Assembly: GCA_964428655.1 (NCBI GenBank)
Contig: CAYRYE010000001.1
Coordinates: 9,328-73,327, forward strand
DNA: 64,000 nt
From: an uncultured Gammaproteobacteria bacterium
GTDB taxonomy: Bacteria > Patescibacteriota > Microgenomatia > UBA12405 > JAHJSD01
Reading direction: 5' to 3'
Part shown: positions 9,770 to 58,932 of the stretch, in pieces
How the letters are laid out: the number at the start of each line of letters is the position of its first letter
Position numbering within the stretch: position 1 is the stretch's first letter
The notes under the pieces: generated by a model
Database searches by the model: none
What the model was told of the DNA's origin: nothing
What the model saw: the letters and a program-made list of their open reading frames with translations, nothing else
Translations under genes and position numbers: made by a program

Positions 9770-9848
9770 AACAAGTGATTATAGCACAAACCTCTTCTTG
9801 CCAATTGTGGAAAATTTTTTTATAATGTGAATAACTTGCCCTCCAAAT

Positions 9849-12163: not shown

Positions 12164-12206
12164 TTATCCACAATTTTCTCCACAAATTAAGCTGTATTTT
12201 CCACCT
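12164..12206 (+). promoter_or_regulatory. DnaA-box cluster (candidate oriC) in the dnaA-dnaN intergenic AT-rich region
   Basis: Perfect TTATCCACA at 12164-12172, plus TTCTCCACA (12178-12186) and TTTTCCACC (12198-12206), in a 320-bp AT-rich spacer. An additional TTTTCCACAATTG is on the opposite strand at about 9826-9838 upstream of dnaA. Confidence 0.6.
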
Positions 12207-13528: not shown

Positions 13529-13936
13529 CTATTTCCAACTTATCTCATGTGTTTGAGGATCAATTTCTTTGCTGTGGATCCAGTCAAGGATTTTTTGGCG
13601 AGTGACAGCTGAAGTTGTTACCTTGATAGTAATTTCAAGTTTTAATGGACCGATGTAGCGAATAGCAATGTTTTTGTCGGGATAGGGGAGATAAGGAGAA
13701 AGAGGGAAGTTGTTTAAAATATTCTGGACAAATTCTTCTTCAGTGATTCCCTTATCGCCGGTATCAGCAGGGGACTTAGTGGGGATTTTAGTTGGATACG
13801 GGGTGGGAAGAAGTGTTGGTATTACCTCTTCTGCTTTTTGAGAACCGAATAGTTTAAAACCCAGAAGCAGACTGGCGATCAAAGCTAAAAGAATGATTAA
13901 CTGATATTTTTTAACAAAAGCAATTAATTTTTTCAT
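13529..13936 (-). CDS. Hypothetical membrane-anchored protein (N-terminal TM, about 100-aa extracytoplasmic domain); first gene of the T4SS-like operon
   Basis: Signal-anchor MKKLIAFVKKYQLIILLALIASLLLGF; no recognisable family. Confidence 0.4.
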   Translation of the reverse strand: MKKLIAFVKKYQLIILLALIASLLLGFKLFGSQKAEEVIPTLLPTPYPTKIPTKSPADTGDKGITEEEFVQNILNNFPLSPYLPYPDKNIAIRYIGPLKLEITIKVTTSAVTRQKILDWIHSKEIDPQTHEISWK

Positions 13937-13945
13937 TTTTAATAA

Positions 13946-16579
13946 TCAGTGACAGCGGATAAATTCAGCCACGCTGGCAACTGGTACGCTCTTAAAATTA
14001 ATTCTACCAGATCCGCCCCAGGCCTGAGCCACTTGAACCATACCGCTATCTAAATCAGCGCCGATGACGATAGCGATGTGACCATATGCTCCTGATGTCC
14101 AAATAGTGTTATCGCCAATTTGAATAGCAGCCATGTTTTCTCCTGGCGAATATACATGAGTACATTGGCCACAACCGCTTCCAACAAAGTGTTTAGCGTC
14201 ACCACAAGCGGGTAGATTTTGTTCAACGGCTCGTTTAAAACCAACACACTGAAGAGTTCCATCCCAAGCAAGTGATATTTTAAAAGTATCTATGATTCTC
14301 TCGGCAGAACCAATCAATTGTTGTAAGGTTTGGCTAGCTCGAAGACAGATAGCAGTCATGTTCATAGAGTTGTTAGTAACCGCCGAAATATTGCAGTCTT
14401 GAAGAATAAAGTTAATATAACAGGCAACTTTTGCCGATTGATTGTTTATACTTTGACAATAACCAACATCGCTTTCAAAAGGAAGCATGTCTCTTATTTC
14501 ACCAATAAGTTCTTCTTCGGTAATTCCTCTTTCAATTGGCGGAGCTAAAGTTTGGTTATACATTTGCATTGGTCCCAAGTTAATGAAAAACAAAACACCA
14601 AAAACGAGAACAAAAATAAGAGCAAGAGGGACAACAGTAGTAACGGTTCCTATGGCAAGGATAATGCCGACCGGGTAATAAATAATGTCTTTGAACCATT
14701 TCAGGACAGGAATTTTGCCAAGAATATCACGGAGTTTAGTTGATAGACCGAGAGTAAAGAAGTTTAAAACCTCAGGAATTTTAAGTTTTTCAGCAATCTT
14801 TTTGATTAGACTCCAGCCCAATCTTAGAGCTTCTGCTCCCAGCCAAATAAGAATACTGGCCCCACCAGTGGGGATGCCTAAAGCGGTGGCCAAAGCAACG
14901 GCAAGAGTTTCTCCGGCAAGGAGTTCTGCTGCTTTTTCAGCTGTCACAAGAACTCCTTTTTCGGCCAGTCTTTTAACTATTTTTTCAGCGGCGTATTTGT
15001 AAAACTTTGTTTTTATTTTCCCAGTAAGTTTTCCAGTAAGTTTTTTAATCGGGATTTTCTTTTTAACCCATCTGTTAAATCTACTTTTGGCTATGTGCTG
15101 ACCAAAATCGGTAACGGGTCTAACAGTTTCCATAATCGCATAGTTAGGGCTTTCTGAAACTTGGCAGGCGGTGCCACCAGGCTTATAAACAGTATCCCAA
15201 TAAGCGATTGCCGGATCAGAAGAGATTGTTTTGGCTGCTGGTTGTTCTTGGACATAATCGTAGAATTTCTGCCAAACATCAACTAACTCTTGCAATTTTG
15301 GTGTTTGGGCAAGTTGGGTGATGGTATATAAAATTGCTGGGGGGTTATTTTTTCCTGGCCTAAGAACATGGAAAATATTGATTGGTTTTGCAGGCAGGTT
15401 ATTGGTTTGTTCAACAAGAGTTTTTTGCCGAGGCATAGGCGTAACTGCCACCGCTCTGCTAAAGTAAGTTGGCAGGCTGGTGAGGGTTTGAACAGCAAGC
15501 TCTACAGCCGGAGTGACTGTTTCCGCGGATGGATCTAAACCAATGTTTGCCAGGTGTCCAATAACGATTTGCTCAACATTATTTTGGGCGTCTTGCCTGA
15601 TTTGTGTTGGCGTCATGTCTTTGGCAATTGCTTTAAGGATAGGAGTAACAGAAGTAATCATTCCTTGTACTAATTGAGTTCCTTCTTTTTCAGTTAGAGA
15701 AACATTGTGGTTTGACAAGACAATGGCAATAGTTGGAGTAGCGATTAGCGGGGCTATTCCTGACTGATCGGCTGTTTCATGAGCAGTTAGTGTTAAAGCA
15801 GCGGCAATTTGATTTAAGGCTTCAGGTGGTAAAGTAGTCGTGATTGATTCTGACAGTGATTGGGGTAGTTCTGGTGAAGGATTGGCGATGCGATAGGCAA
15901 CAGCCGTTGTGGCAGTTGAAAATTGATTTGTTTTGGCTAGTTTCCGGACTTGATCAACAATTGTTTTTCTGATTTCTGGTTGGGGAATAACTCCTTTGAT
16001 TGTGGTTTGTTGTACAGTGCCTGTTTGAAAAGAAGCAAATACCACTTCTTCTGTTTGAGTAGTGGTTAAAGGAATATTATCAACACTTGTGACGGTTGTT
16101 ATTTGTTCAGTTCTCTGTTCTAAAATTCGAGAGATAACCTTGTCTATTTCTGTTTGACTTAAACCATATCTTTCTAAAATTTTACTTAATTCTGTTTTGT
16201 CTCGGATTTCAGCAACAAGTCTTTCTCTTTCTTCTAAAGCTTGAAGCATTTCTTTAAGATTAGAAGGCACTTCACCATGAGTAATAGTATTGCCAGTGAT
16301 AGGCATTTCTTGATAAAAGAAAGCAGAAATTCTATGGAAGAAATCATAAAGATTTTCTTGTTCTTCTAAAGTAAGACCAAAAAGCTGTTCCAGACGAGCA
16401 AAAAGTTGGTTCAGTTGTTCATCAGGCCAACCCAGTTTTTTGAGCGCTTCTTGTTTGTTTGGAGTATCTGATACTCGAGTCGAGAGATCAAAAAAATATT
16501 CAGCGAGAGCGTTGTTTCTTGGTTCAGTAAGCTGGACTCTTGTTTTGGTTTGACTAATTGCCTCTATCTCTCTGGCCAT
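13946..16579 (-). CDS. Large multi-domain T4SS-associated protein: N-terminal Q/T-rich region, central polytopic membrane segment, C-terminal CHAP-type peptidoglycan hydrolase
   Basis: C-terminus carries C...GQCTHV...YGHIAIVIG, matching the CHAP Cys/His catalytic pattern. Several TM helices around residues 560-640. Resembles VirB1/VirB6-like components of Gram-positive conjugation systems. Confidence 0.55.
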   Translation of the reverse strand: MAREIEAISQTKTRVQLTEPRNNALAEYFFDLSTRVSDTPNKQEALKKLGWPDEQLNQLFARLEQLFGLTLEEQENLYDFFHRISAFFYQEMPITGNTITHGEVPSNLKEMLQALEERERLVAEIRDKTELSKILERYGLSQTEIDKVISRILEQRTEQITTVTSVDNIPLTTTQTEEVVFASFQTGTVQQTTIKGVIPQPEIRKTIVDQVRKLAKTNQFSTATTAVAYRIANPSPELPQSLSESITTTLPPEALNQIAAALTLTAHETADQSGIAPLIATPTIAIVLSNHNVSLTEKEGTQLVQGMITSVTPILKAIAKDMTPTQIRQDAQNNVEQIVIGHLANIGLDPSAETVTPAVELAVQTLTSLPTYFSRAVAVTPMPRQKTLVEQTNNLPAKPINIFHVLRPGKNNPPAILYTITQLAQTPKLQELVDVWQKFYDYVQEQPAAKTISSDPAIAYWDTVYKPGGTACQVSESPNYAIMETVRPVTDFGQHIAKSRFNRWVKKKIPIKKLTGKLTGKIKTKFYKYAAEKIVKRLAEKGVLVTAEKAAELLAGETLAVALATALGIPTGGASILIWLGAEALRLGWSLIKKIAEKLKIPEVLNFFTLGLSTKLRDILGKIPVLKWFKDIIYYPVGIILAIGTVTTVVPLALIFVLVFGVLFFINLGPMQMYNQTLAPPIERGITEEELIGEIRDMLPFESDVGYCQSINNQSAKVACYINFILQDCNISAVTNNSMNMTAICLRASQTLQQLIGSAERIIDTFKISLAWDGTLQCVGFKRAVEQNLPACGDAKHFVGSGCGQCTHVYSPGENMAAIQIGDNTIWTSGAYGHIAIVIGADLDSGMVQVAQAWGGSGRINFKSVPVASVAEFIRCH

Positions 16580-16586
16580 GGCTGGT

Positions 16587-18467
16587 TTAAACTTCTACTT
16601 TTATCGGTTGAATTGTTGGTCTTGATTTGGGTGATGGTGGGGTAGTTTTTTCCCTTTTCATTTCTAATAATTCTTCCGGGTTAGAGGTAATTACTTTGTG
16701 TTCGTTGGGAGAAGCAATGACTCGAATAGCCACATGGTTTTTGCCGGCAAAAAAGATTCCTTCACCGATATCAGCTCCCAAAAGCAATTGTCTTTCCCCC
16801 TCAGACAAGTAGAAAACATCAGTAACTTGATCCATGGCTGCCGGGTGCTGTTTGAGCAGTATTTGGATTGAAGAGTTAGTGACGATAGCCTTGCCGTAGT
16901 CAGATTGCAGGAAATCCTGGACATCTTGGGTAATGGTAGTAACGCCAAGATAATATTTCCTTGCCCTTTTGGCTAAGCTGTAAAGGAACTGAGCAGAATC
17001 TTTGTATTTCATTAGATACCAGGCCTCATCAACGACCAAAATGCGTCGTTTCATTTCTCGTCGGATTTTATTCCAAATAAAATCTAGGATAATATACATT
17101 GCTGTTGGTCGAAGGGCTTCCTCAAGATCTCGAATACCAAAGACAACAAATTTGTTTTTAATGTCAACATTAGTTTGAGAGTTGAACAAACCAGCGAATG
17201 AGCCTTTAATGAATTTTTCTAATCGGGCTGCTAAAGAAGCGGCCTTAGGATCTTCCATACCAATTAAGACTTTATAGAGGTCTTCAATTAAGGGCATTTC
17301 TTTTCCTTTTTGAGACTCTGGGTCAAGAGTGATACCTTTCATTTTGTAAGATTGAATTAGGGCTCGATCCAGCAGAGCCTCTTCTTCCGGATTTAACTCA
17401 CCCATAATTACCTTGAATAAGCCGTGAAGAGCCAGAATTTTGCGACCTAATTCATTTTCACTGTTTTCCTGGGAAGAAATTTCTAAATCGAAAGGATTTA
17501 TTTTTGAAGGCGAGTTAAAGCTAAAAGTGATATATTGGCCGCCAACAGCTTTGGCCAAATCCTGGTATTCGTTTTCCGGGTCAATGACCATGATTTCTGT
17601 ACCAAACATTAAAGATCGGAAAACTTCCAGTTTTATCATATAAGATTTTCCTGCGCCCGATTTAGCAAAAACGATAGAGTTCGCGTTTTCCAGGGAGAAT
17701 CGGTCAAAAATAACTAGTGAGCCATTGTGTTCGTTGATGCCGTACATGATTCCTTTGTCGTCAGAAAGATCAGAGGAGACAAAAGGAAAGGTTGTTGCCA
17801 GTGAAGTAGTGTCCATATTGCGAGTAATTTTGAGCAGATCTTGACAAATTGGCAAAGTGGTTTTAAACCCATTTTCCATTTGCAGAGTGGCATGTTTGGG
17901 GATAATTAAAAGTGATCCTAAGTTTGATTCAAGTTCCTTAGTGGTCTGGTTTAACTGGTCAATTGATTTAGCTCCAATAGTGATATAGAGACCGAGCTGG
18001 AAAAATTTCTCAATACCCTTAACCAGCTCTTCTTGCAAGGTAAGTGCATCCTCAAGTTTAGCTTTAGTAGCCGGATTGATTACTCTGCCTCGTTGAATGT
18101 CTGAGGAGAGTTCAGCTTCCATTTCAGCAATTTTGCGACGGAGATCGTCTAAGATTTCTTTACCTTCAGTGGGATAGATATACATGGAAGTATCTAGAGA
18201 GTGGTCGAAGTTGATTAACGATGAAAGCCAATTGGCGGAGACAAACCTGGGGTAGTTAACAATAAAAAGAGTTCGATAGTAACGATTATTAATTCTAACC
18301 CAATCAAAATCGACTTCAATAGCTGAAGGGGCGACAATGTCTTTTACAGAAACCAACCCAGCAGAAAACGAAACAGGTTTAGTTTTGTCAGTTGGATTAA
18401 CTGTTGTTTTTTGGTTTTTGGTTGACTTCTTTACTGGTTTGATTTTGTTGAAAAAATCTAGGATCAT
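16587..18467 (-). CDS. virB4: VirB4/TrbE-like type IV secretion ATPase (core and C-terminal ATPase part)
   Basis: DWVRINNRYYRTLFIVNYP... WL..L entry motif typical of Firmicutes-type VirB4; Walker A AKSGAGKSYMI; Walker B ILVVDEAWYLM. Confidence 0.85.
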   Translation of the reverse strand: MILDFFNKIKPVKKSTKNQKTTVNPTDKTKPVSFSAGLVSVKDIVAPSAIEVDFDWVRINNRYYRTLFIVNYPRFVSANWLSSLINFDHSLDTSMYIYPTEGKEILDDLRRKIAEMEAELSSDIQRGRVINPATKAKLEDALTLQEELVKGIEKFFQLGLYITIGAKSIDQLNQTTKELESNLGSLLIIPKHATLQMENGFKTTLPICQDLLKITRNMDTTSLATTFPFVSSDLSDDKGIMYGINEHNGSLVIFDRFSLENANSIVFAKSGAGKSYMIKLEVFRSLMFGTEIMVIDPENEYQDLAKAVGGQYITFSFNSPSKINPFDLEISSQENSENELGRKILALHGLFKVIMGELNPEEEALLDRALIQSYKMKGITLDPESQKGKEMPLIEDLYKVLIGMEDPKAASLAARLEKFIKGSFAGLFNSQTNVDIKNKFVVFGIRDLEEALRPTAMYIILDFIWNKIRREMKRRILVVDEAWYLMKYKDSAQFLYSLAKRARKYYLGVTTITQDVQDFLQSDYGKAIVTNSSIQILLKQHPAAMDQVTDVFYLSEGERQLLLGADIGEGIFFAGKNHVAIRVIASPNEHKVITSNPEELLEMKREKTTPPSPKSRPTIQPIKVEV

Positions 18468-19182
18468 CTTGTTTTAGCTTTACTCTTCCTTTAATAATAG
18501 CTCCTTGTTGATTTAAAGCGTCAATATTATCAACCAGACTTGATTCCTGATTATAAATCTGATAGAAAAGCTGGATTAACTCTTTGCTTTTAAGCTGTTT
18601 AATTGATAAACCCAGTCTACCAAAAAGACGAATTAAATGTTCTTTTTTGGGTTCTAAAGTTGCCTTAGCTCTTTCCAAGATCTTTTCTTTAGCCATAGGT
18701 AGTGATTTGTTTGTTTGTTTGTTTAATAGTGAGAGTGGGAGAGGCAGACTAGTTTTAACCGCTGTTTGGACTCCTAGTTCGACTGAAAAGAAAGGGATAA
18801 TTATATAGAAAGATTTGGCTAAAACGTTGTTTTTCTTAACTACTTCCTCGACGAATTGGCGATAAAGGATAATCTGTTTTTTCAACAGTGGTTCGTTGAT
18901 TTTAGCCTCTTGTTTTTTGAGACGATTAACATAATTGGAAACATCCTTTAAAGTGGATCGGATCACGATTTGAACTGGAAAAGTAAGTGAGTTGAGCATG
19001 GCGGCGTAAGTGTAGATCATTGCCTCTTGTTCTTTTTCAGAAAGAAGGTCAAAGTTAACTGATGAAGTTTCTAAAATCATAATACAAGACCCATTTTTTA
19101 AAATGGTTAAATCTTCCTTGATGTCTTCGATAGGGAGATGTTCTTGAGTGGTTCCTTTAATAGCAATTTTGTTTAAGTCCAT
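18397..19182 (-). CDS. VirB4 N-terminal-domain-like protein; likely the 5' portion of a split or frameshifted virB4
   Basis: ILETSSVNFDLLSEKEQEAMIYTYAAMLNSLTFPVQIVIRS resembles the N-terminal region of Gram-positive VirB4 ATPases. It overlaps the next ORF by 71 nt in a different frame. Confidence 0.5.
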   Translation of the reverse strand: MDLNKIAIKGTTQEHLPIEDIKEDLTILKNGSCIMILETSSVNFDLLSEKEQEAMIYTYAAMLNSLTFPVQIVIRSTLKDVSNYVNRLKKQEAKINEPLLKKQIILYRQFVEEVVKKNNVLAKSFYIIIPFFSVELGVQTAVKTSLPLPLSLLNKQTNKSLPMAKEKILERAKATLEPKKEHLIRLFGRLGLSIKQLKSKELIQLFYQIYNQESSLVDNIDALNQQGAIIKGRVKLKQDDPRFFQQNQTSKEVNQKPKNNS

Positions 19183-19188
19183 GGGAGC

Positions 19189-20037
19189 TTAGCTCTTGGT
19201 TGTAATTTTTAACGGTGAGATTACTTTGCCTTCTACCTTGATTTTGATTATATCAAACTGATAGCTTTCTTTTTCTGCCAATATTAGGTATTCACCATTG
19301 GCCAGAGGAGTGGCGGTTTTGAATTGTCCTAATTGATTGGTTCGTAAGGCTCGAACCGGGTTTTCAGAGATGTCTTGAATTTCAATAATTACATCTTCCA
19401 TGATTTTTCCGTCTTGATTTGTAACCATACCAACAATAATATTAGGGGTTGTTGGTGGTTGGGGCATAGGTATTTCCCCGAAAGCAGCTTCAATAGTTGG
19501 TTTCGGTGTCACCACAGTTTTAGGAATGTCGATTTCTACTCTAGGAGTGATGGTTGTTTTTCTTTCGGGTGGCTTTTGAATTTGAACAGGAGCAGTAACT
19601 TCTTTTTTCTGATCAGTCTTTTTTTGTTTTTTGGGAAGCGAGGCAAGAAACTCTTCTAATTGAGGTTTTTTTGATATAATGGGCTCTTCTTCTTCTTCTT
19701 CTTCCTCCTCCTCTTCTTTAAAGCTCGTGTCAAAGATATCTAGTGTGGTTAGTTGTTTTTGCCAGAGATAAATTGTTGGCGAAAGGACGCTTTTGACAAA
19801 AGCAAAAATCCAGACCTCTAGTGGTCTTTCATTGACAGGTAAGAAAGCTAGGGCGATTCCAAGGAGGCCAAAACTTAAAACTAAGGGCCATTTTATAATA
19901 AAAGATAGATGACTGGAGTAAAAAATAAAGGCAATAACTAGACCACCGGCAACCTTAAAAAACTGCTTCAAAGTCATATTTCCTACTAGTCGAAACTCGT
20001 AGGAAGAAATTTGTTGTGGGATGGGATGTTGTTCCAT
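19189..20037 (-). CDS. PrgI-family (VirB3-like) membrane protein with poly-Glu linker and C-terminal beta-sandwich (carboxypeptidase-regulatory-like) domain
   Basis: N-terminus ...ISSYEFRLVGNMTLKQFFKVAGGLVIAFIFY plus a second TM helix matches the PrgI/VirB3-like pattern. It sits directly upstream of virB4, as in Gram-positive T4SS. The EEEEEEEEEEE run is encoded by a GAA/GAG repeat at about 19690-19725. Confidence 0.6.
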   Translation of the reverse strand: MEQHPIPQQISSYEFRLVGNMTLKQFFKVAGGLVIAFIFYSSHLSFIIKWPLVLSFGLLGIALAFLPVNERPLEVWIFAFVKSVLSPTIYLWQKQLTTLDIFDTSFKEEEEEEEEEEEPIISKKPQLEEFLASLPKKQKKTDQKKEVTAPVQIQKPPERKTTITPRVEIDIPKTVVTPKPTIEAAFGEIPMPQPPTTPNIIVGMVTNQDGKIMEDVIIEIQDISENPVRALRTNQLGQFKTATPLANGEYLILAEKESYQFDIIKIKVEGKVISPLKITTKS

Positions 20038-20091
20038 CGTTATTTCATTTTAAAGGAGTGAGTATTAAGTAGCAAGTAAGATGAGATATAA

Positions 20092-21097: not shown

Positions 21098-21112
21098 AGG
21101 ATATTTTTTATA

Positions 21113-22588
<1,476 letters not shown>

Positions 22589-23477: not shown

Positions 23478-23780
23478 TTAGAGAATTGTGAGACCGAAAA
23501 TAACTTCGACGATTTGGACAATCCAGTAGGCGGAAAAGACTACTAAAAAACCAATAATGGCAAAGACAATTTTATTGGTTCCTTCTTTAATTCCATTTGG
23601 TTCTCCTCCGGAAGTTAGAAGCTGAAACCCTCCCAATAAAAGATAGACAAACATAGCTAAACCAGCAAAGACCAGAGCATATTTTAAAGTTTCGGAAGCA
23701 ATTCCTCCTAAAGTAGAAACTTCTGGCTTTATACCAACAATTTTAGGATCAGGAATGGTAACTTGGGCAAAAACCTTCAC
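23478..23780 (-). CDS. VirB2/TrbC-like two-helix pilin-type protein (paralog 1 of 8)
   Basis: About 100 aa: hydrophobic helix, GG...SGGEPNGIKEGTNKIVFAIIGFLVV, second helix. N-terminus MKVFAQ.. nearly identical to the paralog at 59707..60045. Confidence 0.55.
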   Translation of the reverse strand: MKVFAQVTIPDPKIVGIKPEVSTLGGIASETLKYALVFAGLAMFVYLLLGGFQLLTSGGEPNGIKEGTNKIVFAIIGFLVVFSAYWIVQIVEVIFGLTIL

Positions 23781-24088
23781 TTTTGTAACCCTGGGATATG
23801 TAAAATGTCAACCCCAATTAGTCTTAATAGAAACAGAGAGAAGATAGCGAGTAGTAAACCAGTAATAGCACTAGTAATTGTTTCTTGCCCTCCTTTGATT
23901 TTTTGAGGATCACCTGCTGAAGTAATAATTAAGATGCCGCCGTAGATTATTAATAAAAAAGCTATACCTCCAATAGCTCCTATCAATCTTGGTAAGAACC
24001 ATTCGATGAAATTATTTGGAGAGTTAATAGGAATACAACCAATAGCGGTATTGATCCCATCTTCTCCACTGCAAAAAATTTGAGCCAT
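23777..24088 (-). CDS. VirB2/TrbC-like pilin-type protein (paralog 2 of 8)
   Basis: ..LLIIYGGILIITSAGDPQKIKGGQETITSAITGLLLAIFSLFLLRLIGVDILHIPGLQK, the same architecture and C-terminal (I/L)L.IP motif as the 58.9-61.1 kb array. Confidence 0.55.
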   Translation of the reverse strand: MAQIFCSGEDGINTAIGCIPINSPNNFIEWFLPRLIGAIGGIAFLLIIYGGILIITSAGDPQKIKGGQETITSAITGLLLAIFSLFLLRLIGVDILHIPGLQK

Positions 24089-36011: not shown

Positions 36012-38354
36012 TCATACTTGGGAACGACGAGTGATTTCTGCCTCTACCACTGAAGCAGGCTGGCCATATTTTAAGACGCTTAATCTTTTAATAGTTTTAG
36101 CCAATTTGGGATTTCTTCTTTTTTTCTCAATTTCTATATCCTTAGTGGTATCCATGGAAAATGGCAGTACGGGCTCGTTATCGATAACTGTTTTTATGTA
36201 AGCATGGAACCGTTCTACGTTAAGAAGATCTTGTTCGCTAAAGACAGGTTGGAATTCACGAGCCAAGTAATTAGCATCAGAAACACCAACCTGAAAAGAC
36301 ACCACTGTTCCCACATTGCCGAAAATGGCATTTTTAACCTCTTCTTCCATTTGGCCAATAAATTGGTTGGCTACGGTAAGATTCAGGCGATACTTTCTGG
36401 CCTCGGAGAGAATTTGGGCAAAATCAGGGGTAGCAAAGTTTTGAAACTCATCAACATAAAGATAGAAATTGCGCCTCTGATCTTCCGGTATATCTTGGCG
36501 GCTCATGGCGGCCATAAGGATTCTGGGAACTAGGATTAGTCCCAAGAAGGAAGAATTTTCTTCGCCGATTTTTCCCTTAGCCAAGTTAATAATTAAAATT
36601 TTGCCCTCGTCCATTACCTTGCGGAAGTCAAAAGCTGATTTTGATTGACCGATGATGTTGCGCATCATTTTGTTAGTTACAAATCGGCCGAATTTGGAAA
36701 CAATGTAATCCAATGTTTCAGATTTGTGAAACTCAGCAGTATGGGCGATTTGTTCGGTCCAGTATTCTCTAACAATAGGGTCTTTTACTTTTGGTAGAAT
36801 TCGTTGTAGATATGGCCCGCCTGGATTTTGAAGAATTTTTACCACTTCCATAAAAGTTGTTCCTGGCACACTCATGGCAGTTAGCATGGCGTTTCTGATC
36901 GCATGTTCAAACCGGGGGCCAACAATACCGGTTTTATACGGATCGTAAAGTTTGTACATCAGATTGATTATTGCGGCAGAGACGAAGTGTTTTTGATCTT
37001 CAGTTTCTACTTCTAAAAGGTTAAGTCCAATTGGTCTTTCTGTTTCTGAAGGATCAAAATAAATTACATCTTCGGCCCTCTCGGGAGGGATGTATTCTAG
37101 AATTTGTTCGGCCAAATCATGGGGGTCGATTAAACAAATCCCTCTACCTGCTTTAATATCCTGGATAAGCATTTCCTTCATTAACTCTGTTTTGCCTGCG
37201 CCTGTTTTGCCGATAATGTAGAAATGTCTCTGCCGATCTTTTTCCTGGATATAGATTGGCTTTTCCACTCCTCGGTAACCGCTTTTACCTAAATACAAAC
37301 CAGATTCGGGAAGATTGGACGGCGGCGGAGCGGGTTTAGCTTTCAGACAGTAAACATTAGGAGTTTCTACTGTTTTATTGGGGAGATGGAAGATTGAAGC
37401 CAGTTCTTCGCTGTTTAAAATGGTTTTTATATTTCGCCAGATAATTGGTTGATAGCGGTAAATAAAGTCAATCATAAAAGAATAACGGAAACGGATTTTC
37501 TTTTCCGAAAAACCATTCCAAGGAGATTCAAATTGAGCAAAACTTGATTTGATGTTGTTGAGCTTGGCTTTAGCAATATCCATTGTTGGAGCGCAAACAA
37601 CAATTCTGATTGAAGTTTCGAATCCTGGTTTACTGCACTTGGACTCGATCGCTTCCAAAGTTCGAGCGTCCACTTTAAAACTGGCTTTTTCTGGGTCAGC
37701 CTCTTGTTTTTTGGTGTCACTGACATATGTTTTGCCTGACTTTTGCCAGTTGATATCAGTTGGGCTTATTAAAATCTGGATGGCCGCTCCCTCGTTTTCT
37801 TCTAATTTAGCCATAGCGGAAGTGATTGCTGAAAGAGGATCAGTGGGAAGATCTTTGTAGGTTTTTAAAGGATAAAAGGATTCTTTTTTAAACTTTAGCC
37901 AGGCGTAGCTAATTTTTCCGCTTTTGGAAAAGATATTATACTCATCGACTTCTTTTATCTCGGCATCAGGGTAGCCGCCATGAATTTGCCGCTCTACTAA
38001 TTCGCGCAGTTTTTGAGAGCAGGAGACAAAGAATTTAATTTCTCCATCAGTACTGACGATCTCAAAAGAAATATGGGGTTGACTTTTAAGGAATTTAAAT
38101 TTACCTCCGGTTTTGATTGAATAGAGAGAGGCCATTATTTGTTCCATGGCATCGATTTTCGTCTCATTGTCTCGGGGAACAGCGATTCTAAACAGGACGG
38201 ACTTTAAAGCCTCTTCTTCTCTTTTACGCCATCGCCACCAAAGAACAAAACTATAAAATAATAATCCAAGACCCAATAGTGTTATAACGGCAATTAAAAA
38301 GAGAACAATATAATAGAATAAGGTACTAGTTAGTTGGTTAACAGTTTGATCCAC
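36012..38354 (-). CDS. virD4: VirD4/TraG/TraD-family type IV coupling protein (FtsK/HerA-superfamily ATPase with N-terminal TM anchor)
   Basis: N-terminal TM helices; Walker A YIIGKTGAGKTELM; Walker B LYVDEFQNFATPDF; long N-terminal periplasmic/cytoplasmic domain as seen in other CPR-type coupling proteins. Confidence 0.8.
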   Translation of the reverse strand: MDQTVNQLTSTLFYYIVLFLIAVITLLGLGLLFYSFVLWWRWRKREEEALKSVLFRIAVPRDNETKIDAMEQIMASLYSIKTGGKFKFLKSQPHISFEIVSTDGEIKFFVSCSQKLRELVERQIHGGYPDAEIKEVDEYNIFSKSGKISYAWLKFKKESFYPLKTYKDLPTDPLSAITSAMAKLEENEGAAIQILISPTDINWQKSGKTYVSDTKKQEADPEKASFKVDARTLEAIESKCSKPGFETSIRIVVCAPTMDIAKAKLNNIKSSFAQFESPWNGFSEKKIRFRYSFMIDFIYRYQPIIWRNIKTILNSEELASIFHLPNKTVETPNVYCLKAKPAPPPSNLPESGLYLGKSGYRGVEKPIYIQEKDRQRHFYIIGKTGAGKTELMKEMLIQDIKAGRGICLIDPHDLAEQILEYIPPERAEDVIYFDPSETERPIGLNLLEVETEDQKHFVSAAIINLMYKLYDPYKTGIVGPRFEHAIRNAMLTAMSVPGTTFMEVVKILQNPGGPYLQRILPKVKDPIVREYWTEQIAHTAEFHKSETLDYIVSKFGRFVTNKMMRNIIGQSKSAFDFRKVMDEGKILIINLAKGKIGEENSSFLGLILVPRILMAAMSRQDIPEDQRRNFYLYVDEFQNFATPDFAQILSEARKYRLNLTVANQFIGQMEEEVKNAIFGNVGTVVSFQVGVSDANYLAREFQPVFSEQDLLNVERFHAYIKTVIDNEPVLPFSMDTTKDIEIEKKRRNPKLAKTIKRLSVLKYGQPASVVEAEITRRSQV

Positions 38355-54588: not shown

Positions 54589-56112
54589 TTATCTACCTTG
54601 TAGTTTCCTTAGGAGTGCTTCGTATAAGACATCTATGCCTTTCGCTGGCCCTCCTTTAGTCACAACTTCGCTACCACTACCTTTCTTTTCATATCCCAAT
54701 CGTTGTCCGTATTTACCTCTTGCTATAGCTGACCTTACTGATGGAGCGGCACCCATGAGTCCGTATTTAGCACCTGTTTTAACTGGCCCGAATGCCTCGC
54801 CGATGGCGGTGCCAAATCCTGGATCTTTTATTCCCATGGCGTTTCTTATTATATCAGGAATTTGGGCTAAAATTAACAAAAATCCCATGCCGATGATGGT
54901 TTTGATGAAAAACGCAGATCTGGAACCGGTTACGTCTAACAGGGGAGCGGCCCACATTGATTCTAAATTAGCTGATTGAAGAATAAAGACACCAATCATA
55001 GACACAACGACTACTGCCGGAAAAATTAGAATTTCAGCAAAGATTCCCTTTATCCAAGTGCCGAACCCACCGGCTTGGAAACCAGGGATGGCCCCCATCA
55101 TTATCTGGAGCGGTCCTATGATAACAGCAAAAATAATTTTTATATATGCTTTAGTTAGTCCAAATAATAATTTAAAAAGCAAAAACAAAGCGATAACTGT
55201 CCAAATTAACATTATCAAGGCTGGTCCAGCAAGTAAGCCGATAGCAGCTCCAATCAAAAATTGTCCTCCTATGAGGGTACCGATGACAGTGCCAACAACG
55301 CCGCCAAGAGCTGTTGCAAGTACGAATATACCATTTCCTGCATTAGTAACGGAAAAAAACATTGGCAAAAGAGCGAAAAAGCCGCTATTAATGACTCTGG
55401 TAGGCGTGACCTCGCCTAGTTTCACCGGGCCCAATTGAAACAGTACTGGTTCAATGCCGCCTGTTTTTAAAACTGTAATCCCAAGGGCTATTAAGACATA
55501 CATTAGATCAATCAAAAATCCGGCGATGGCGTAGGAGAAGGTGACTAAAATCAAGGCGCCGATGATTTTGGGCAAAGCGTTTTCAATGGTGATGACAGCT
55601 TGGGGCGATATTTTTACCCGGAACATAATCGCTAGACCGATGCCAACAAAGATAAGAGTAAAAAGAACATAAGTAACATTTCTAAAAGCTTTCCAAATAG
55701 GCAGGATTGGCTGTAAACCGGTGAAACCAACTCCTTGAGCGTAGGCTGGCGCCGCTCCCAAACGATGTAAAACATCATAGGCATAGTAAACTCCTGAAGC
55801 CGGTGGATTAGCGTAAACAGCGCCAATTAAATTAGTGGTGAATTGAAGAGCGCCTATTTCCTGTTTTATTTTTCCTGATTGGGTTCCTTCAGGTGAACCT
55901 TCTCCAGTTCCAGCCATGTTTTTCAAAAAGCCAAAAACAGTATCACTTAAAGTATGTTCATGAAGTCCTTCAGCCGTTAATTTATCTTTATTATTTAAAT
56001 AGTCTTCGTAGCTTGAAGCAGCAAAGGTGAGTTTGAGAGAACCAGCAATAAGAACGCTGAAACAAAAAAATAAGAAGCTTAAACTGATGATTTTCTTTGC
56101 TTTTCTATTCAT
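54589..56112 (-). CDS. VirB6/TrbL-like polytopic membrane protein (putative T4SS channel component)
   Basis: Signal peptide, about 100-aa periplasmic region, then 7-9 Gly/Ala-rich TM helices and a short cytoplasmic tail; genomic context next to the pilin array and virB-like genes. Confidence 0.45.
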   Translation of the reverse strand: MNRKAKKIISLSFLFFCFSVLIAGSLKLTFAASSYEDYLNNKDKLTAEGLHEHTLSDTVFGFLKNMAGTGEGSPEGTQSGKIKQEIGALQFTTNLIGAVYANPPASGVYYAYDVLHRLGAAPAYAQGVGFTGLQPILPIWKAFRNVTYVLFTLIFVGIGLAIMFRVKISPQAVITIENALPKIIGALILVTFSYAIAGFLIDLMYVLIALGITVLKTGGIEPVLFQLGPVKLGEVTPTRVINSGFFALLPMFFSVTNAGNGIFVLATALGGVVGTVIGTLIGGQFLIGAAIGLLAGPALIMLIWTVIALFLLFKLLFGLTKAYIKIIFAVIIGPLQIMMGAIPGFQAGGFGTWIKGIFAEILIFPAVVVVSMIGVFILQSANLESMWAAPLLDVTGSRSAFFIKTIIGMGFLLILAQIPDIIRNAMGIKDPGFGTAIGEAFGPVKTGAKYGLMGAAPSVRSAIARGKYGQRLGYEKKGSGSEVVTKGGPAKGIDVLYEALLRKLQGR

Positions 56113-56154: not shown

Positions 56155-58932
56155 TTATAAAGGCGACCCCTGCCATTCGGCAGGAGTATTGTATAAACTC
56201 CATAATTTTTTAGTTAATTCCAGACTGCCTCCCGGAGCATAAAGTTTTCTCCCTTCATCTCTTTGTATATCTGTATGGCCGCTAATAGCGTCTGGTTTTT
56301 CAAGCCAATGTTTCTCCTCATCTATGGACTCCAGTGAGGAACCCCCGCCGGTTCCGTTAAATTTAGCTTCTATCGGCAAATTTTTGGCGTTGACTTTTTT
56401 ACCGTTAGCCTCTTCAATTTCATATACAAGTTGGTCTGCAATCTCTCCAATTTGGAGTCCGAAAAGATAATTTGTACATTGAAGGACTTTATTATAATTA
56501 GTGACATAAAGAGTATCTCGGGAGGTGACTCTTGCTTCTGCAGTACAACGATTAGGAACATCTTCGTCATTGTAATTAACAGAACAATTGTCCACTTTGA
56601 ATGAATCAGGGAATAGTAGATTTCTTGCTTCCCTAGCCAAACCAGTTGGATTGTCGTAATCTTCATTGGCTTTATTGGTAGTCGGTCCGTTGGCTTTTAC
56701 TCCTTTACCGAGATCGCAGGGGAAATAGAAACGGCTTCTATCTGTTTCTGAAAGACTGGTGTGCAGCTCGGCTGGCAAGCTCATACCTGCCATTCTCGAA
56801 CAGGCTTCGACAGCGCCAAGAGCGTTGGGGATAAAAAGTTTTGCTACCTGGCAAATCTGGCATTGATCATCAACGTCGGTTATAAAGCTGTTTCTTATTG
56901 GTTCGTCGTTGACTTTGACAGGCAATACCCGGTACCTTTGTTGTGGACTTAACTGACCAAAATAACTGCTAAAAACCTCATTGCCTTCTTCTCTTTTACA
57001 TTTACTTTCTTTTGTAGGGTAGCAGGATTCAAGGTAAACCGGCAGATCAGAGTGGCTAATTCCTCCATCTATAGTCATCTGAGCCCAAGTATAAAAGCCA
57101 TAAAGAGCCGCATCCATAGTTTTCGGTATCAAACAAGCCCACTGAGGTGTGTGGGCACACATTGCTTCATAATTTAAATCATTTTCTATAAAATGTTGTT
57201 CATTACAACAATACAGAAGACTTGGTCTAACGGGAATAGGATTGGATGTACACCCGTCAACATTGACTCTGTCAATTCTTCCATCGTCCATTTTTTCAGT
57301 AAAGTCTTTTTCCAACAACATTCCTTTTCCTTCGCAGATCCAAAACAACGGTCGGTCAAAAAGAGCTGTTTCATTCCTTTGTTGAGGAGATCTTGGATCG
57401 TCTGATACTGCCGCCCAAAGTAAGTCATTAGTGATCCAATCAGTGCCTAACTCTCTATATTTCGGCCCAGAAATATATTTACTGGCAAATCCGGTTAAAC
57501 GTTGACTTCTTCTTTTAGCTAGTTCTTCCCAACCGCCTTCTTTGAAAACATCAACGTAGGGCATGTTTCCTCCATAAGCAGAACCAGTATACCAATCAAT
57601 TATTTCTTGAAAGACTTTTAAACCGGCAAAAACATGATGATGGATGGAGAGTTGGTTTATTAGTTCAATAGAGAGTTCAGAGGAATGATGGGTGGGGAAA
57701 AATTTGAACTGGTGGGTAATTATGTTTGATGAGGGGACACAGAATTCAGCCATTCCGTTGTTGAATTCTATAGCCCTTTTATATAATGCGTAATTAATAT
57801 TTGGATCTTCTCCCGGATAGGTATTGTCTTTATCGGAAGGTACCCAATCCAGGCTCCAGGGAAGACGAAACAGATTTCCTAGCCCAGGAATAAAGCTGAA
57901 GAGTCTTTGGAGCAAAGAAGGCTCGTTATTCGGAGTTGAATTACCAGGAAACCAGTTGCGGTTTACTTTAGCCTCGTCCCAGGAAGCTTCTCTGGTTGAG
58001 CGGTTGAGAGCGCCTTCAACCAGACTGCGAAGGGACGGTTTACCTCCGCTTTTGCAGGTGTCGCAGTGGCAATCTCCTTTCAAGGCGTCAATGACACAGT
58101 CAGCATCCCAAAGATTCCATGATCCGCTGTAATCACCAGGAGCAAAAGAAAAAATTGCCCAGCCAATGATATTCTGAGATTGCCAGAAATCAACTACTGT
58201 TTGGCCGTCGGCGCCGGCGCAATACATATTACAGAGGTCATTTTCTTGATAGGTTGGCGGACCGCTTTCACCATTTTCCAAGGCGCCGGTTTCGGTTAGA
58301 ACTACTGGCAGAGAGCCAGCTCCCCTAACTCCCAGTTCACCTAGCTTATTCCGGTAATTTCTAGCCATGCCCGGAGAATAAATATGCATGGAAATAACAG
58401 AGTAGGGGATATTTTCTAACAAGCCAACCATCGTTGGAGTATTTGGATGGTATGGATCCCAAGCCGGTGAGGTTAAAATGGCATTGGAAGGCAAAACACT
58501 AGCCAAAGTATTAATATATTTTTTTACTCTACTACCACATTCTTGTAAAGATAAATTGCCGCATTCAGTGTCCAATCGGGCTGGTTCGTTCCAGGGTTCA
58601 AAATAGACTGTTTTATTAATTTTCTTTAAAAAATTAGCCCAGATATTGGCTGCCTCTTGAGGATTATTAAGCATTTTATCGCCTATTGGCAGCCAGTGGC
58701 TGTGGCCGCGGATAACCCAATTAAAGGAGGAAGAGTTGATTACATTAACCAACGCATCGCTTTTAGGATCGGCGGCAACGACTACCAAGGCTCCGTCGCC
58801 AAAATGCTCTTGGATTTTATTAATAGTATTTCCACTCCAATCATTAATAATATTGACATAGGCAAAAGTTTTAACAACAGATAACAGGTAACAGGTGGTA
58901 ATGGAAAGTAGGAAGATTGAAAACTTTTTCAT
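56155..58932 (-). CDS. Secreted 925-aa Cys-rich protein with N-terminal glycoside-hydrolase-family-5-like TIM-barrel domain
   Basis: Signal peptide MKKFSIFLLSITTCYLLSVVKTFA. GH5 acid/base signature VYFEPWNEP and nucleophile LPVVLTETG. The C-terminal ~600 aa has more than 30 Cys. Confidence 0.55.
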   Translation of the reverse strand: MKKFSIFLLSITTCYLLSVVKTFAYVNIINDWSGNTINKIQEHFGDGALVVVAADPKSDALVNVINSSSFNWVIRGHSHWLPIGDKMLNNPQEAANIWANFLKKINKTVYFEPWNEPARLDTECGNLSLQECGSRVKKYINTLASVLPSNAILTSPAWDPYHPNTPTMVGLLENIPYSVISMHIYSPGMARNYRNKLGELGVRGAGSLPVVLTETGALENGESGPPTYQENDLCNMYCAGADGQTVVDFWQSQNIIGWAIFSFAPGDYSGSWNLWDADCVIDALKGDCHCDTCKSGGKPSLRSLVEGALNRSTREASWDEAKVNRNWFPGNSTPNNEPSLLQRLFSFIPGLGNLFRLPWSLDWVPSDKDNTYPGEDPNINYALYKRAIEFNNGMAEFCVPSSNIITHQFKFFPTHHSSELSIELINQLSIHHHVFAGLKVFQEIIDWYTGSAYGGNMPYVDVFKEGGWEELAKRRSQRLTGFASKYISGPKYRELGTDWITNDLLWAAVSDDPRSPQQRNETALFDRPLFWICEGKGMLLEKDFTEKMDDGRIDRVNVDGCTSNPIPVRPSLLYCCNEQHFIENDLNYEAMCAHTPQWACLIPKTMDAALYGFYTWAQMTIDGGISHSDLPVYLESCYPTKESKCKREEGNEVFSSYFGQLSPQQRYRVLPVKVNDEPIRNSFITDVDDQCQICQVAKLFIPNALGAVEACSRMAGMSLPAELHTSLSETDRSRFYFPCDLGKGVKANGPTTNKANEDYDNPTGLAREARNLLFPDSFKVDNCSVNYNDEDVPNRCTAEARVTSRDTLYVTNYNKVLQCTNYLFGLQIGEIADQLVYEIEEANGKKVNAKNLPIEAKFNGTGGGSSLESIDEEKHWLEKPDAISGHTDIQRDEGRKLYAPGGSLELTKKLWSLYNTPAEWQGSPL

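Follow-up and report, generated by a model that had tools for sequence, protein, structure and literature searches.

A probable non-conjugative T4SS core operon beside dnaN-dnaA in Candidatus Shapirobacteria

The T4SS of Patescibacteria are described in two papers (PMC10633639, PMC12102498) as of monoderm MPF-FATA ancestry, with TrsD, PrgI, VirB2-like arrays and a near-origin site, and without a relaxase. For the same clade, Quinonero-Coronel et al. (2025, Microb Genom, PMC12102498) report TrsD, PrgI, VirB2 arrays, dnaA/dnaN proximity and the lack of a relaxase; in Microgenomatia, few VirB3 homologues (22.6%) occur near virB4, and VirB6, VirB8, and VirB1 are scarce. Wang et al. (2023, Cell, PMC10633639) show that Saccharibacteria cannot do without their version of the system. 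The overall picture is already present in the 2023-2025 literature (PMC10633639, PMC12102498, PMC12857230). The cluster described here is, with a probability of roughly 0.88, the vertically inherited, non-conjugative core operon of a Patescibacteria-type T4SS derived from monoderm MPF-FATA conjugation machinery. A comparison with T4SS loci of CPR, as suggested by an earlier sequence-only reading, revealed agreement with these published systems (PMC10633639, PMC12102498).

Operon layout and chromosomal setting

The host genome is that of a member of Candidatus Shapirobacteria (Microgenomates, CPR). In the window, i.e., the whole 64-kb stretch of DNA that was analysed, five minus-strand ORFs are located at 13529-20037, spaced by 6-9 nt or overlapping, and are flanked by the 23S (215-3024) and the 16S (21109-22588) genes:

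20038..20091, no strand: divergent intergenic region between PrgI and a 5'-3' exonuclease gene, 54 nt, presumed operon promoter
19189..20037, minus strand: PrgI/VirB3-like protein, 282 aa, with a two-helix membrane hairpin (aa 30-68), a low-complexity linker with an 11-Glu run and a beta-sandwich (aa ~186-282)
18397..19182, minus strand: TrsD/TraD-like protein, detached VirB4 N-terminal domain, 261 aa
16587..18467, minus strand: C-terminal part of the VirB4 ATPase, CD1110 / MPF-FATA type, 626 aa
13946..16579, minus strand: giant membrane-anchored peptidoglycan hydrolase (p877), 877 aa, with an all-alpha N-domain, a central membrane module and a C-terminal CHAP domain
13529..13936, minus strand: small bitopic protein (p135), 135 aa, with an N-terminal TM anchor, a Pro/Thr linker and a ~70-aa alpha-beta-beta-alpha-beta domain
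12164..12184, plus strand: two DnaA-box-like sites between the PP2C gene and dnaN, with a second pair at 9806-9834, upstream of dnaA

Judged from the sequence, the 54-nt gap presumably holds the operon promoter; its single promoter-like match is TTGCTA-17-TAAAAT (20075-20047, minus strand), and promoter-like matches in this gap are not commoner than in shuffled sequence. The DnaA-box-like sites mark the replication origin, approximately 1.3 kb from the 3' end of the operon, and the cumulative GC skew reaches its minimum at 10-12 kb of the window.

A VirB4 relative was found in 240 GTDB species, the best 80 of which are CPR, mostly Microgenomates, with 60-84% identity. Most of these 80 related species share PrgI-TrsD-VirB4, usually with a giant hydrolase, a small anchored protein and then dnaN-dnaA behind it. 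In 69 of the 80 loci PrgI immediately precedes TrsD-VirB4, and 47 of the 80 have the operon beside dnaN-dnaA, a position shared across several candidate phyla; most of the others are contigs ending earlier. In 43 of 43 loci, VirB4 is better conserved than either DnaA or DnaN, a result that may be slightly inflated by the selection of the 80 loci by VirB4 similarity. The dnaN-dnaA neighbourhood, together with the lack of a relaxase among the scanned ORFs of the 64-kb window, bears out the earlier proposal of a resident, domesticated apparatus.

Proteins encoded by the operon

The first gene had been read as a PrgI-family VirB3-like protein with a poly-Glu linker and a C-terminal beta-sandwich. 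Family (PF12666, 30.6 bits, GA cutoff 27) and sandwich hold, but the poly-Glu run is not a conserved feature: 11 Glu residues occur in this genome only, three relatives have shorter acidic stretches (5-6 residues), and linker length ranges from 73 to 773 aa among the related loci. The C-terminal domain is a prealbumin-like beta-sandwich with a CarboxypepD_reg match (E 7.5e-5), which is found in 36 of 37 PrgI family members, and the two-domain architecture of hairpin and sandwich was observed in 70 of the 80 loci. The fusion is lineage-wide and represents a modest addition to the published picture.

The 626-aa ORF matches NCBIfam conju_CD1110 (NF045971; 397 bits, cutoff 325) and a TraG P-loop (E 1e-33). 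Walker A (SGAGKS), Walker B (ILVVDEAW) and DWVRINNRYYRTL are readable in its translation, with both Walker motifs intact. The 261-aa ORF matches NCBIfam TrsD with E 1.1e-10, below the curated cutoff, and S. aureus TraD in hhalign with 94% probability (E 1.1e-7); it aligns to positions 103-233 of the Mbov_0397 VirB4 and 122-190 of the CD1110 VirB4, and supplies the VirB4 N-terminal region that is absent from the 626-aa ORF. The split Firmicutes-type VirB4 proposed from the sequence is confirmed by these matches, and a profile check for an ATPase belonging elsewhere returned the VirB4 family CD1110 above its cutoff, as well as PrgI above the Pfam cutoff.

TrsD and VirB4 are read in different frames and share 71 nt. 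Together with the tyrosine recombinase and three tRNA genes beside virD4, and with plasmid and ICE conjugation systems as the closest characterised relatives, this could indicate an integrated conjugative element or a decaying remnant whose VirB4 split is a frameshift pseudogene. Such an origin is highly improbable and already largely refuted. The split occurs in 76 of 76 related loci with variable junctions and is therefore ancestral and no frameshift, a separate TrsD gene is normal in pGO1-type systems, and the intact Walker motifs, the conservation of VirB4 above that of DnaA and the dnaN-dnaA-adjacent position argue against decay or mobility as well. Furthermore, neither a relaxase nor an integrase is present at the operon, whose G+C content resembles its surroundings without a compositional break; the best VirB4 match among plasmids reaches 39.5% identity only.

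For p877, three parts were distinguished:

15080..16522, minus strand: N-terminal all-alpha domain (aa ~20-500), without signal peptide, probably cytoplasmic
14531..14929, minus strand: central hydrophobic/membrane module (aa ~551-683), most hydrophobic at aa 560-578 and 648-666
13949..14287, minus strand: C-terminal CHAP cysteine peptidase/amidase domain, catalytic Cys778 and His834

Internal TM segments and a C-terminal CHAP domain, as read earlier, were thus both recovered, the latter with a score below the curated cutoff and as a VirB1 analogue. The AF2 model, obtained as the sequence-only reading had suggested, has a mean pLDDT of 75 (<50 in the TM region) and an all-alpha N-domain of unassigned fold. 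The stretch of aa 521-720, which holds the membrane module, is kept in 18 related loci, and only 45 relatives of p877 exist among 1.84 billion cluster representatives. An identical protein is encoded on contigs of three independent assemblies; an assembly artefact is therefore excluded. As p877 has no more than about 2-4 hydrophobic segments and is not similar to VirB6/TrbL, its reading as VirB6 is not supported; no lytic transglycosylase (SLT-type) domain was found in it, and it shows no sequence similarity to TraF/TrsF. Its positional homologues in 32 loci carry M23, CHAP, VanY, C39-like, YkuD or Amidase_6 domains, and a cell-wall peptidase domain of some kind is present in 24 of these 32 giant proteins. 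The gene after virB4 thus encodes a giant membrane protein in which the peptidoglycan-hydrolase domain is exchanged from lineage to lineage, again a modest addition.

p135 has an N-terminal TM anchor, as read earlier. Its ~70-aa domain does not have the NTF2-like VirB8 fold and gave zero VirB8 matches, so that p135 was rejected as VirB8; the operon yielded no VirB8-like protein, and p135 has no sequence similarity to TraH. Of the minimal Gram-positive-type T4SS with a VirB1/3/4/6/8-like set that had been suggested, the VirB3-like protein, the split VirB4 and the CHAP domain in place of VirB1 remain, VirB8 does not, and a VirB6 within the operon is not supported.

The CHAP domain resembles PcsB and other autolysins, and neither p877 nor p135 is similar to TrsF or TraH. 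Both could accordingly form a PcsB-like cell-division or wall-remodelling module that is merely situated between virB4 and dnaN; in the lineages L060, L075, L078, and L079 virB4 is directly followed by dnaN, and in L008 and L059 the pair is located upstream of PrgI. This is improbable, since gaps of 7-9 nt indicate a single transcription unit and most loci have a giant protein with mid-located TM segments and a bitopic protein alongside the T4SS genes, also where the pair has changed sides. Hydrolases also occupy the equivalent position in pGO1-type and Pontibacillus loci, and in S. epibionticum the T4SS is essential, as are the peptidase and lysozyme genes located downstream of virB4 (PMC12102498).

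Dispersed components and proposed function

Further candidate components occur elsewhere in the window:

23478..24088, minus strand: two further VirB2-like pilin genes (jackhmmer pilin family; NCBIfam Mbov_0395, E 1.8e-5 and 3.8e-4)
36012..38354, minus strand: VirD4-like coupling-protein ATPase, 780 aa, with TrwB_AAD_bind, TraG-D_C and T4SS-DNA_transf matches
54589..56112, minus strand: polytopic protein, best VirB6 candidate, 507 aa, ~9 TM
56155..58932, minus strand: 925-aa protein between the pilin array and the VirB6 candidate, with one N-terminal hydrophobic segment
58929..61375, minus strand: array of six VirB2-like T4SS pilin genes (PF18895 in 6/6, E 1.8e-10 to 6.8e-4)

In case of the VirD4-like protein, the T4SS-DNA_transf match is just marginally over the Pfam cutoff, and the matches to the NCBIfam coupling-protein models SXT_TraD (E 4.4e-14, 51.9 bits, cutoff 366) and conju_CD1115 (E 3.7e-8, 32.7 bits, cutoff 250) are below theirs. 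Its gene is adjoined by the aforementioned recombinase and tRNA genes. In the pilin array, two of six ORFs exceed the PF18895 gathering cutoff, and a match to the NCBIfam Mbov_0395 pilin-like conjugal transfer protein was obtained. The 507-aa protein has no direct Pfam or PDB match. Its family profile aligns with a Pontibacillus 8-TM protein (hhalign probability 80%, E 1.4e-5) that matches Pfam TrbL/VirB6 with E 2e-4, below GA; by this transitive, sub-threshold link it is a better VirB6 candidate than p877. The hydrophobic N-terminus of the 925-aa protein is probably a signal peptide; no Pfam/NCBIfam match and no detectable homologue in the related loci were found for this protein.

In relatives, the pilin array, the 507-aa protein and VirD4 directly adjoin PrgI-TrsD-VirB4, which ties the dispersed loci to one system: VirD4 adjoins PrgI in the related loci L069 and L076, and of the 19 related loci holding a homologue of the 507-aa protein, 16 have it 2.5-5 kb upstream of PrgI. 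The dispersed secretion/uptake machine postulated earlier is hence retained for the virD4-like gene, the eight pilin-like ORFs and the 507-aa protein. A ComFC-like gene is present in the window as well, but no link to the T4SS was found.

Assembly order, membrane topology, substrate and transport direction we infer as follows. The PrgI/VirB3-like hairpin and the free-standing TrsD would tether VirB4 to the cytoplasmic membrane as motor and assembly platform, while p877, held in the membrane, would present its CHAP peptidase outside the cell. By locally cutting peptidoglycan peptides, the latter may allow a channel or pilus to cross the wall, a VirB1 role by analogy to TraG/TrsG, PrgK, and CwlT of Gram-positive systems; p135 would be an extracytoplasmic accessory on one helix anchor. 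The VirB6 candidate, the eight VirB2-like pilins and the VirD4-like ATPase would complete the machine. Because no relaxase was seen in the 64-kb window, the most likely role of the system is to form a pilus or conduit to a host cell that serves macromolecule exchange and not conjugation.

A variant of this explanation, which differs in transport direction, is a mainly importing device like H. pylori ComB or archaeal Ced, taking host DNA, RNA or nucleotides into a nucleotide-auxotrophic epibiont via the VirB2-like pilus. It is possible, yet rather unlikely. VirB4 and VirD4 weakly match the DNA-import proteins CedB and CedD, but these matches are far under the cutoff (40.5 vs 700 bits), and VirB4 groups with conjugative CD1110-type ATPases. 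That no relaxase was found among the scanned ORFs speaks for import, the separate ComFC-like competence gene against it. Since competence is dispensable and the T4SS essential in S. epibionticum, reviews propose uptake as a candidate role (PMC11665869, PMC12857230), and a 2026 preprint ties host-RNA feeding to T4SS-like tubes.

Comparison with known systems

Among the Mycoplasma ICE T4SS, the Mbov_0395 family is matched by the window pilins (E 9e-7), below the curated cutoff. The Mbov_0397 VirB4 profile of 894 positions is covered only jointly by TrsD and the VirB4 C-terminal part, likewise below the curated cutoff; going by this profile, the Mycoplasma VirB4 is a single protein. According to the NCBIfam family description, this T4SS resides on a mobile ICE.

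The closest non-CPR VirB4 in the plasmid collection (39.5% identity) is encoded on the Pontibacillus sp. ALD_SL1 megaplasmid (NZ_CP062975.1, 351-361 kb), in a locus typed as non-mobilizable. It is colinear, with two Mbov_0395-type pilins, a VirB6-like 8-TM protein, PrgI, TrsD, VirB4, and a 1050-aa TM hydrolase. In contrast to the window, PrgI lacks the C-terminal beta-sandwich, the hydrolase carries NlpC/P60 and M23 domains with N-terminal TM helices, a p135 homologue is missing, the locus does not sit at a replication origin, and its host is a free-living Bacillota.

With pGO1/pSK41/pIP501-type systems the operon shares the order VirB3-like protein, TrsD, VirB4, membrane protein, CHAP hydrolase, small anchored protein, given in pGO1/pSK41 as TraC(PrgI)-TraD-TraE(VirB4)-TraF-TraG(CHAP)-TraH. 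The CHAP domains align, and TrsD homology has a probability of 94%. Unlike the window, pGO1-type systems are plasmid-borne with relaxase, topoisomerase and coupling protein, lack pilins and encode TraF and TraG separately; p877 is without TraF similarity, no SLT-type domain was found in it, and p135 is without TraH similarity.

The likeness to the Patescibacteria T4SS (PMC10633639, PMC12102498) comprises the MPF-FATA VirB4, the separate TrsD, the PrgI-type VirB3, PF18895 pilin arrays, VirD4 far from virB4, no relaxase, the dnaA/dnaN neighbour and a wall hydrolase gene downstream of virB4. Neither the beta-sandwich extension of PrgI nor the 135-aa family is mentioned in the available portions of the two papers. 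In contrast to the Microgenomatia account in PMC12102498, PrgI lies directly upstream of TrsD-VirB4 in 69/80 loci, the VirB1 slot is occupied by a giant TM protein of which the hydrolase domain is swappable, and the 507-aa polytopic family provides a VirB6 candidate.

Layout of the core operon beside the presumed replication origin

The core operon occupies positions 13529-20037 of the minus strand and, according to ORF translation of the window, comprises five ORFs which overlap or lie 6-9 nt apart. It is bordered by dnaN on one side and by a 5'-3' exonuclease gene on the other.

Core operon and neighbouring genes
215-3024: 23S rRNA gene
9849-11186: dnaA
12390-13520: dnaN, convergent to the operon
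13529-13936, minus strand: p135, 135 aa, N-terminal anchor helix
13946-16579, minus strand: p877, 877 aa, C-terminal CHAP domain
16587-18467, minus strand: VirB4 ATPase, 626 aa, NF045971 and Walker motifs
18397-19182, minus strand: TrsD, 261 aa, TrsD/TraD homology
19189-20037, minus strand: PrgI/VirB3-like protein, 282 aa, PF12666
20092-20994: 5'-3' exonuclease gene, divergent from the operon
21109-22588: 16S rRNA gene

Since the cumulative GC skew of the window has its minimum at 10-12 kb and DnaA-box-like sites are situated at 9806/9826 and 12164/12176, the 3' end of the operon is presumably located approximately 1.3 kb from the origin. Judged from the skew, the operon would be transcribed towards the origin and head-on to the rightward fork. 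A promoter scan of the operon gave matches no better than those in shuffled sequence. The 16S and 23S rRNA genes are unlinked and flank the origin region on opposite strands, approximately 18 kb apart; neither a tRNA nor a 5S gene was found between them. A PP2C-type protein phosphatase gene (11177-12067, minus strand) separates dnaA from dnaN, and its 3' end shares 10 nt with the end of dnaA.

A conserved PrgI-TrsD-VirB4 module at a fixed chromosomal position

The 626-aa protein passes the CD1110-family equivalog NF045971 with 397.2 bits (cutoff 325) over profile positions 185-733 of 752, carries Walker A (SGAGKS) and Walker B (ILVVDEAW) motifs in its translation, and contains a TraG P-loop domain (E 1.1e-33). 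These matches identify it as a VirB4 ATPase of the CD1110/MPF-FATA type. The N-terminal domain of VirB4 is not part of this polypeptide; a separate TrsD ORF is present in the window and in 76 of 76 relatives, and pGO1-type systems likewise carry the N-domain on a separate TrsD. The 261-aa protein matches NCBIfam NF041427 with E 1.1e-10, yet its 41.7 bits remain below the cutoff of 200. It fills the region of the VirB4 profiles that is absent from the 626-aa protein (CD1110 positions 122-190, Mbov_0397 positions 103-233), and the profile of the CPR TrsD family aligns to TraD of S. aureus with an hhalign probability of 94% (E 1.1e-7, 177 columns). Both this homology and the position of its gene between those of VirB3 and VirB4 are those of a TrsD/TraD protein, and we identify it as TrsD, the missing N-domain of VirB4.

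A frameshift or a decaying pseudogene might likewise leave VirB4 in two pieces. This explanation was rejected, because all 76 loci are split and VirB4 is better conserved than DnaA and DnaN. TrsD and VirB4 occupy separate reading frames in 76/76 loci, with junctions of -162 to +112 nt except for one rearranged locus; the split is therefore ancestral and due to neither sequencing errors nor programmed frameshifting. The VirB4 ORF of many Shapirobacteria relatives extends 150-450 aa further at the C-terminus (up to 1073 aa in total) than the 626-aa ORF of the window, e.g., L005:9854-12820, L022:511-3732, and L056:5628-8576 (L001-L080 denote related CPR loci, one per species, chosen by VirB4 similarity).

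The 282-aa protein matches PF12666 (PrgI) with 30.6 bits (gathering score 27), forms a two-helix membrane hairpin at aa 30-68 (TM aa 30-48 and 50-68), and is encoded just upstream of TrsD-virB4, as is typical of PrgI/VirB3. Compared to canonical PrgI of approximately 100 aa, it bears an additional C-terminal extension of 190 aa. The last ~100 residues form a CarboxypepD_reg (prealbumin-like) beta-sandwich; the match of the window protein is below threshold, but 36 of 37 family members match the domain (best E 1.6e-11). A word-based search with this C-domain in isolation yielded no candidate homologues. In the relatives, the preceding linker is of low complexity and varies from 73 to 773 aa. 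Its run of 11 Glu residues is found in the window genome only, with acidic runs of 5-6 residues in three relatives, and was dropped as a functional feature due to this restriction to one genome. In L027 (1839-2930, minus strand), the beta-sandwich and a preceding FGDIPMP..PN motif are fused to a 200-aa HAD-like domain, and neither a TM helix nor a signal peptide was found in this ORF. The occurrence of the domain on a TM-less protein hints that it works in the cytoplasm, and it may be a docking module shared between proteins.

Of the GTDB species, each represented by one genome, 240 were found to encode a VirB4 relative. The best 80 of these 240 are CPR genomes with 60-84% identity, mostly Shapirobacteria in addition to Curtiss-, Woese-, Ames- and Chisholmbacteria, some of the records being obviously mislabelled bins; the closest locus (L001) belongs to a Shapirobacteria MAG. 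Most of the best 80 loci show the order (exonuclease) / PrgI-TrsD-VirB4 - giant protein - small anchored protein / dnaN-dnaA. In the 43 loci that hold all compared genes, mean identity to the window is 66% for VirB4, 50% for TrsD, 46% for DnaA, 44% for DnaN, and 42% for PrgI. VirB4 exceeds both DnaA and DnaN in each of the 43, which were picked by VirB4 similarity.

An ICE or genomic island would be expected to combine a linked relaxase and an integrase or replicon with variable presence. No relaxase was found among the scanned ORFs of the 64-kb window, and the operon keeps its fixed place on the dnaN-dnaA side across relatives, so that an ICE or island was rejected. The resident, domesticated apparatus proposed by the sequence-only reading is borne out by the same observations, and its VirB3-like, VirB4 and CHAP assignments hold as well. 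We regard the component identities and chromosomal domestication as shown, with a confidence of about 0.9.

The giant hydrolase and the small anchored protein

Structure prediction of p877, as suggested by the sequence-only reading, gave an AlphaFold model (mean pLDDT 75) of three parts. An all-helical N-domain (aa ~20-500) and a C-terminal domain (aa 690-877) are both modelled with confidence, and between them lies a hydrophobic stretch of low confidence (aa 551-683). The C-terminal domain is a CHAP domain of papain-like fold with the conserved catalytic Cys and His. A hydrolase domain, TM segments, and a position in the virB4 operon are in combination the features of a VirB1-type wall hydrolase. 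The membrane module had also been taken to supply the VirB6 of the core operon. This view, as well as an assignment to TraF, was abandoned because p877 contains only ~2-4 hydrophobic segments, where a VirB6 has 5 or more TM helices, and profile and sequence comparison revealed similarity neither to TrbL/VirB6 nor to TraF.

Identical copies of p877 occur on contigs of three independent assemblies. Its identity to the protein of the closest genome is 31%, where VirB4 retains 84%. Exhaustive HMMER search of 1.84 billion cluster representatives detected just 45 relatives, compared to two matches in a word-based search. The giant proteins encoded after virB4 in related loci, i.e., the positional homologues of p877, measure 730-1240 aa and comprise a TM-free N-terminal half, hydrophobic helices at residues ~450-700, and a C-terminal domain. 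Wall-peptidase domains were found in 24 of the 32 positional homologues scanned; by C-terminal domain, Peptidase_M23 occurs in 12, CHAP in 8, VanY and C39-like domains in 2 each, and YkuD and Amidase_6 in 1 each. Profile scans of p877 and these 32 proteins detected no glycan-cleaving domain (SLT, lysozyme, glucosaminidase). Two further large envelope proteins are encoded in the window, a 928-aa DUF4012 protein (47307-50093) and a 573-aa VanW + PG_binding_4 protein (50842-52563); DUF4012 is also present on one giant protein of a relative.

TraG/TrsG, PrgK and CwlT are the VirB1-type hydrolases of Gram-positive systems. By analogy to these, and on the basis of the gene order of the pGO1-type plasmid, the modular wall hydrolase encoded after virB4 has the position and the predicted function of VirB1. 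The exchange of hydrolase domains and the fast divergence may reflect adaptation to a foreign wall, that of the host. It is tempting to speculate that the giants represent a Microgenomates-specific T4SS subunit with a host-wall "warhead" and that the prealbumin-like domain of PrgI serves as cytoplasmic docking module, although we regard this joint reading as improbable. The interchangeable warhead (M23, CHAP, VanY, YkuD, C39-like) may be aimed at the cell wall of the host and not at that of the epibiont itself, and the docking module could bring partner enzymes or cargo to the base of the T4SS. If the warhead is indeed directed at the host, the T4SS would act as a feeding apparatus that pierces host cells and is adjusted to the range of hosts.

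p135 begins with an anchor helix, which is followed by a Pro/Thr linker and an alpha-beta-beta-alpha-beta domain of ~70 aa (pLDDT above 90). VirB8 proteins, including PrgL, TraM and TraH, are bitopic with an NTF2-like extracytoplasmic domain; p135 does not conform to this description, and its earlier designation as VirB8-like was given up. A family of bitopic proteins of ~300-360 aa is encoded between the giant hydrolase gene and dnaN in about 30 relatives (e.g., L016:15971-16924, L057:14855-15910, and L069:11666-12670) and represents a VirB8 candidate for the wider lineage. The window holds no full-length counterpart of this family, and p135 matches three of six representatives searched over no more than their first ~55-65 residues, which comprise the anchor helix and the beginning of the linker.

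Dispersed components and comparison with known systems

Further components are encoded outside the core operon.

Dispersed components in the window
23478-24088: two VirB2-like pilin ORFs (jackhmmer pilin family)
36012-38354: VirD4-like ATPase
41828-42484: ComFC-like ORF, Cys-rich N-terminus and phosphoribosyltransferase motif
54589-56112: p507, 507-aa polytopic protein with ~9 TM helices
58929-61375: array of six VirB2-like pilin genes (PF18895 matches, jackhmmer pilin family)

The eight pilin ORFs constitute one family by jackhmmer. The three that were scanned, one of the array and both of the pair, match the NCBIfam Mbov_0395 pilin-like family of the Mycoplasma ICE. To our knowledge, Gram-positive-type systems are usually stated to lack VirB2-like pilins; contrary to this statement, the Mbov_0395 matches therefore place such pilins in monoderm (Tenericutes, Pontibacillus) relatives of the T4SS.

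The p507 family has no direct match in Pfam or PDB profile searches. Its profile aligns to an 8-TM protein of Pontibacillus (hhalign probability 80%, E 1.4e-5), which in turn matches TrbL/VirB6 with 21.6 bits, just below the GA of 25.9. Since the link runs via this sub-threshold match, p507 as VirB6 is plausible, not proven. In 19 related loci, a p507 homologue is found close to PrgI or virB4; pilins and a p507 homologue lie upstream of PrgI in L010, L014, L070, and L080, and VirD4 adjoins PrgI in L069 and L076. This linkage to the core operon in relatives supports one system that was split up in the window genome. Thus, the dispersed machine of the sequence-only reading stands with regard to the eight pilins, the VirD4-like protein, and p507; its inclusion of the ComFC-like ORF does not, as nothing was found that ties this ORF to the T4SS.

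Beside the ComFC-like gene, a 7TM_transglut-like membrane protein gene is followed by three ATP-grasp (RimK/ATPgrasp_ST) genes (42524-46536), which may constitute a peptide-ligase module. Directly next to the VirD4-like gene lie a gene for a XerC/D-like tyrosine recombinase and three tRNA genes (34349-35996). A 115-aa ORF without family match (38479-38826) is located just downstream of virD4 and may encode a VirD4 partner, since it recurs near VirD4 in L066.

For assembly, topology, substrate and direction of transport we infer the following. PrgI and TrsD would attach the VirB4 ATPase to the membrane, the CHAP domain of p877 would open peptidoglycan locally, and p135 would act as external accessory. 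The VirB6-like p507, the pilins, and VirD4 would complete a pilus or channel, which would serve non-conjugative exchange with the host cell.

Patescibacteria, which live on other cells, make up a large part of the diversity of bacteria. The window is a clean example of a Microgenomates T4SS with all parts mapped, and it suggests candidates for components that are scarce in published HMM surveys of the class, namely the VirB1-type giant hydrolase with swappable catalytic domain, the VirB6 candidate family, and the conserved C-terminal domain of VirB3. They offer defined starting points for structural and biochemical studies and leave the current picture of the T4SS unchanged.

Wang et al. 2023 (PMC10633639) described a T4SS of a Saccharibacterium (SEML1_0006-0019) that is essential, includes pilins and has no relaxase; among Patescibacteria only one member is genetically tractable, and there the T4SS is essential. 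The function of the T4SS was stated to be completely unknown (PMC11665869), and a 2025 review (PMC12857230) considers these T4SSs the most exciting newcomers of the superfamily. The survey of 3,035 Patescibacteria genomes by Quinonero-Coronel et al. 2025 (PMC12102498) placed their VirB4 in a monophyletic clade within MPF-FATA. In this survey, TrsD was the most frequent component, VirB3 was of the PrgI type, VirB2 arrays were plentiful in Microgenomatia, relaxases were rare, and the genes lay close to dnaA/dnaN. The comparison with Saccharibacteria and other CPR that the sequence-only reading had suggested revealed the shared features of the clade in the window, i.e., TrsD and PrgI with VirB4, VirB2-like arrays, proximity to the origin, and absence of a relaxase from the scanned ORFs. 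By identity alone, used as proxy for clade membership, the window VirB4 shares 60-84% with 80 CPR species versus 39.5% with the best plasmid-borne VirB4. Because the literature already describes such T4SSs, the interpretation of the sequence-only reading reproduces published knowledge.

Differing from the 22.6% association reported for the class in PMC12102498, PrgI is almost always adjacent to TrsD-VirB4 in these Microgenomates. Relative to the survey as far as available, the giant swappable hydrolase in the VirB1 slot, the lineage-wide PrgI beta-sandwich, and its occurrence on the HAD-like ORF of L027 go slightly further, and so does, with respect to the published picture as far as available, a non-mobilizable Bacillota locus that is colinear with the CPR system. 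This locus lies on the 898-kb plasmid of Pontibacillus sp. ALD_SL1, typed as non-mobilizable (NZ_CP062975.1, 351-361 kb; L081, 4474-14027), and adjoins flagellar genes. It encodes, in this order, two pilin-like proteins, the VirB6-like 8-TM protein, PrgI, TrsD, VirB4 (39.5% identity to that of the window), and a 1050-aa hydrolase with TM, NlpC/P60 and M23 domains. The Pontibacillus locus could be related to the Patescibacteria T4SS as a sister lineage, or it could have been transferred out of CPR.
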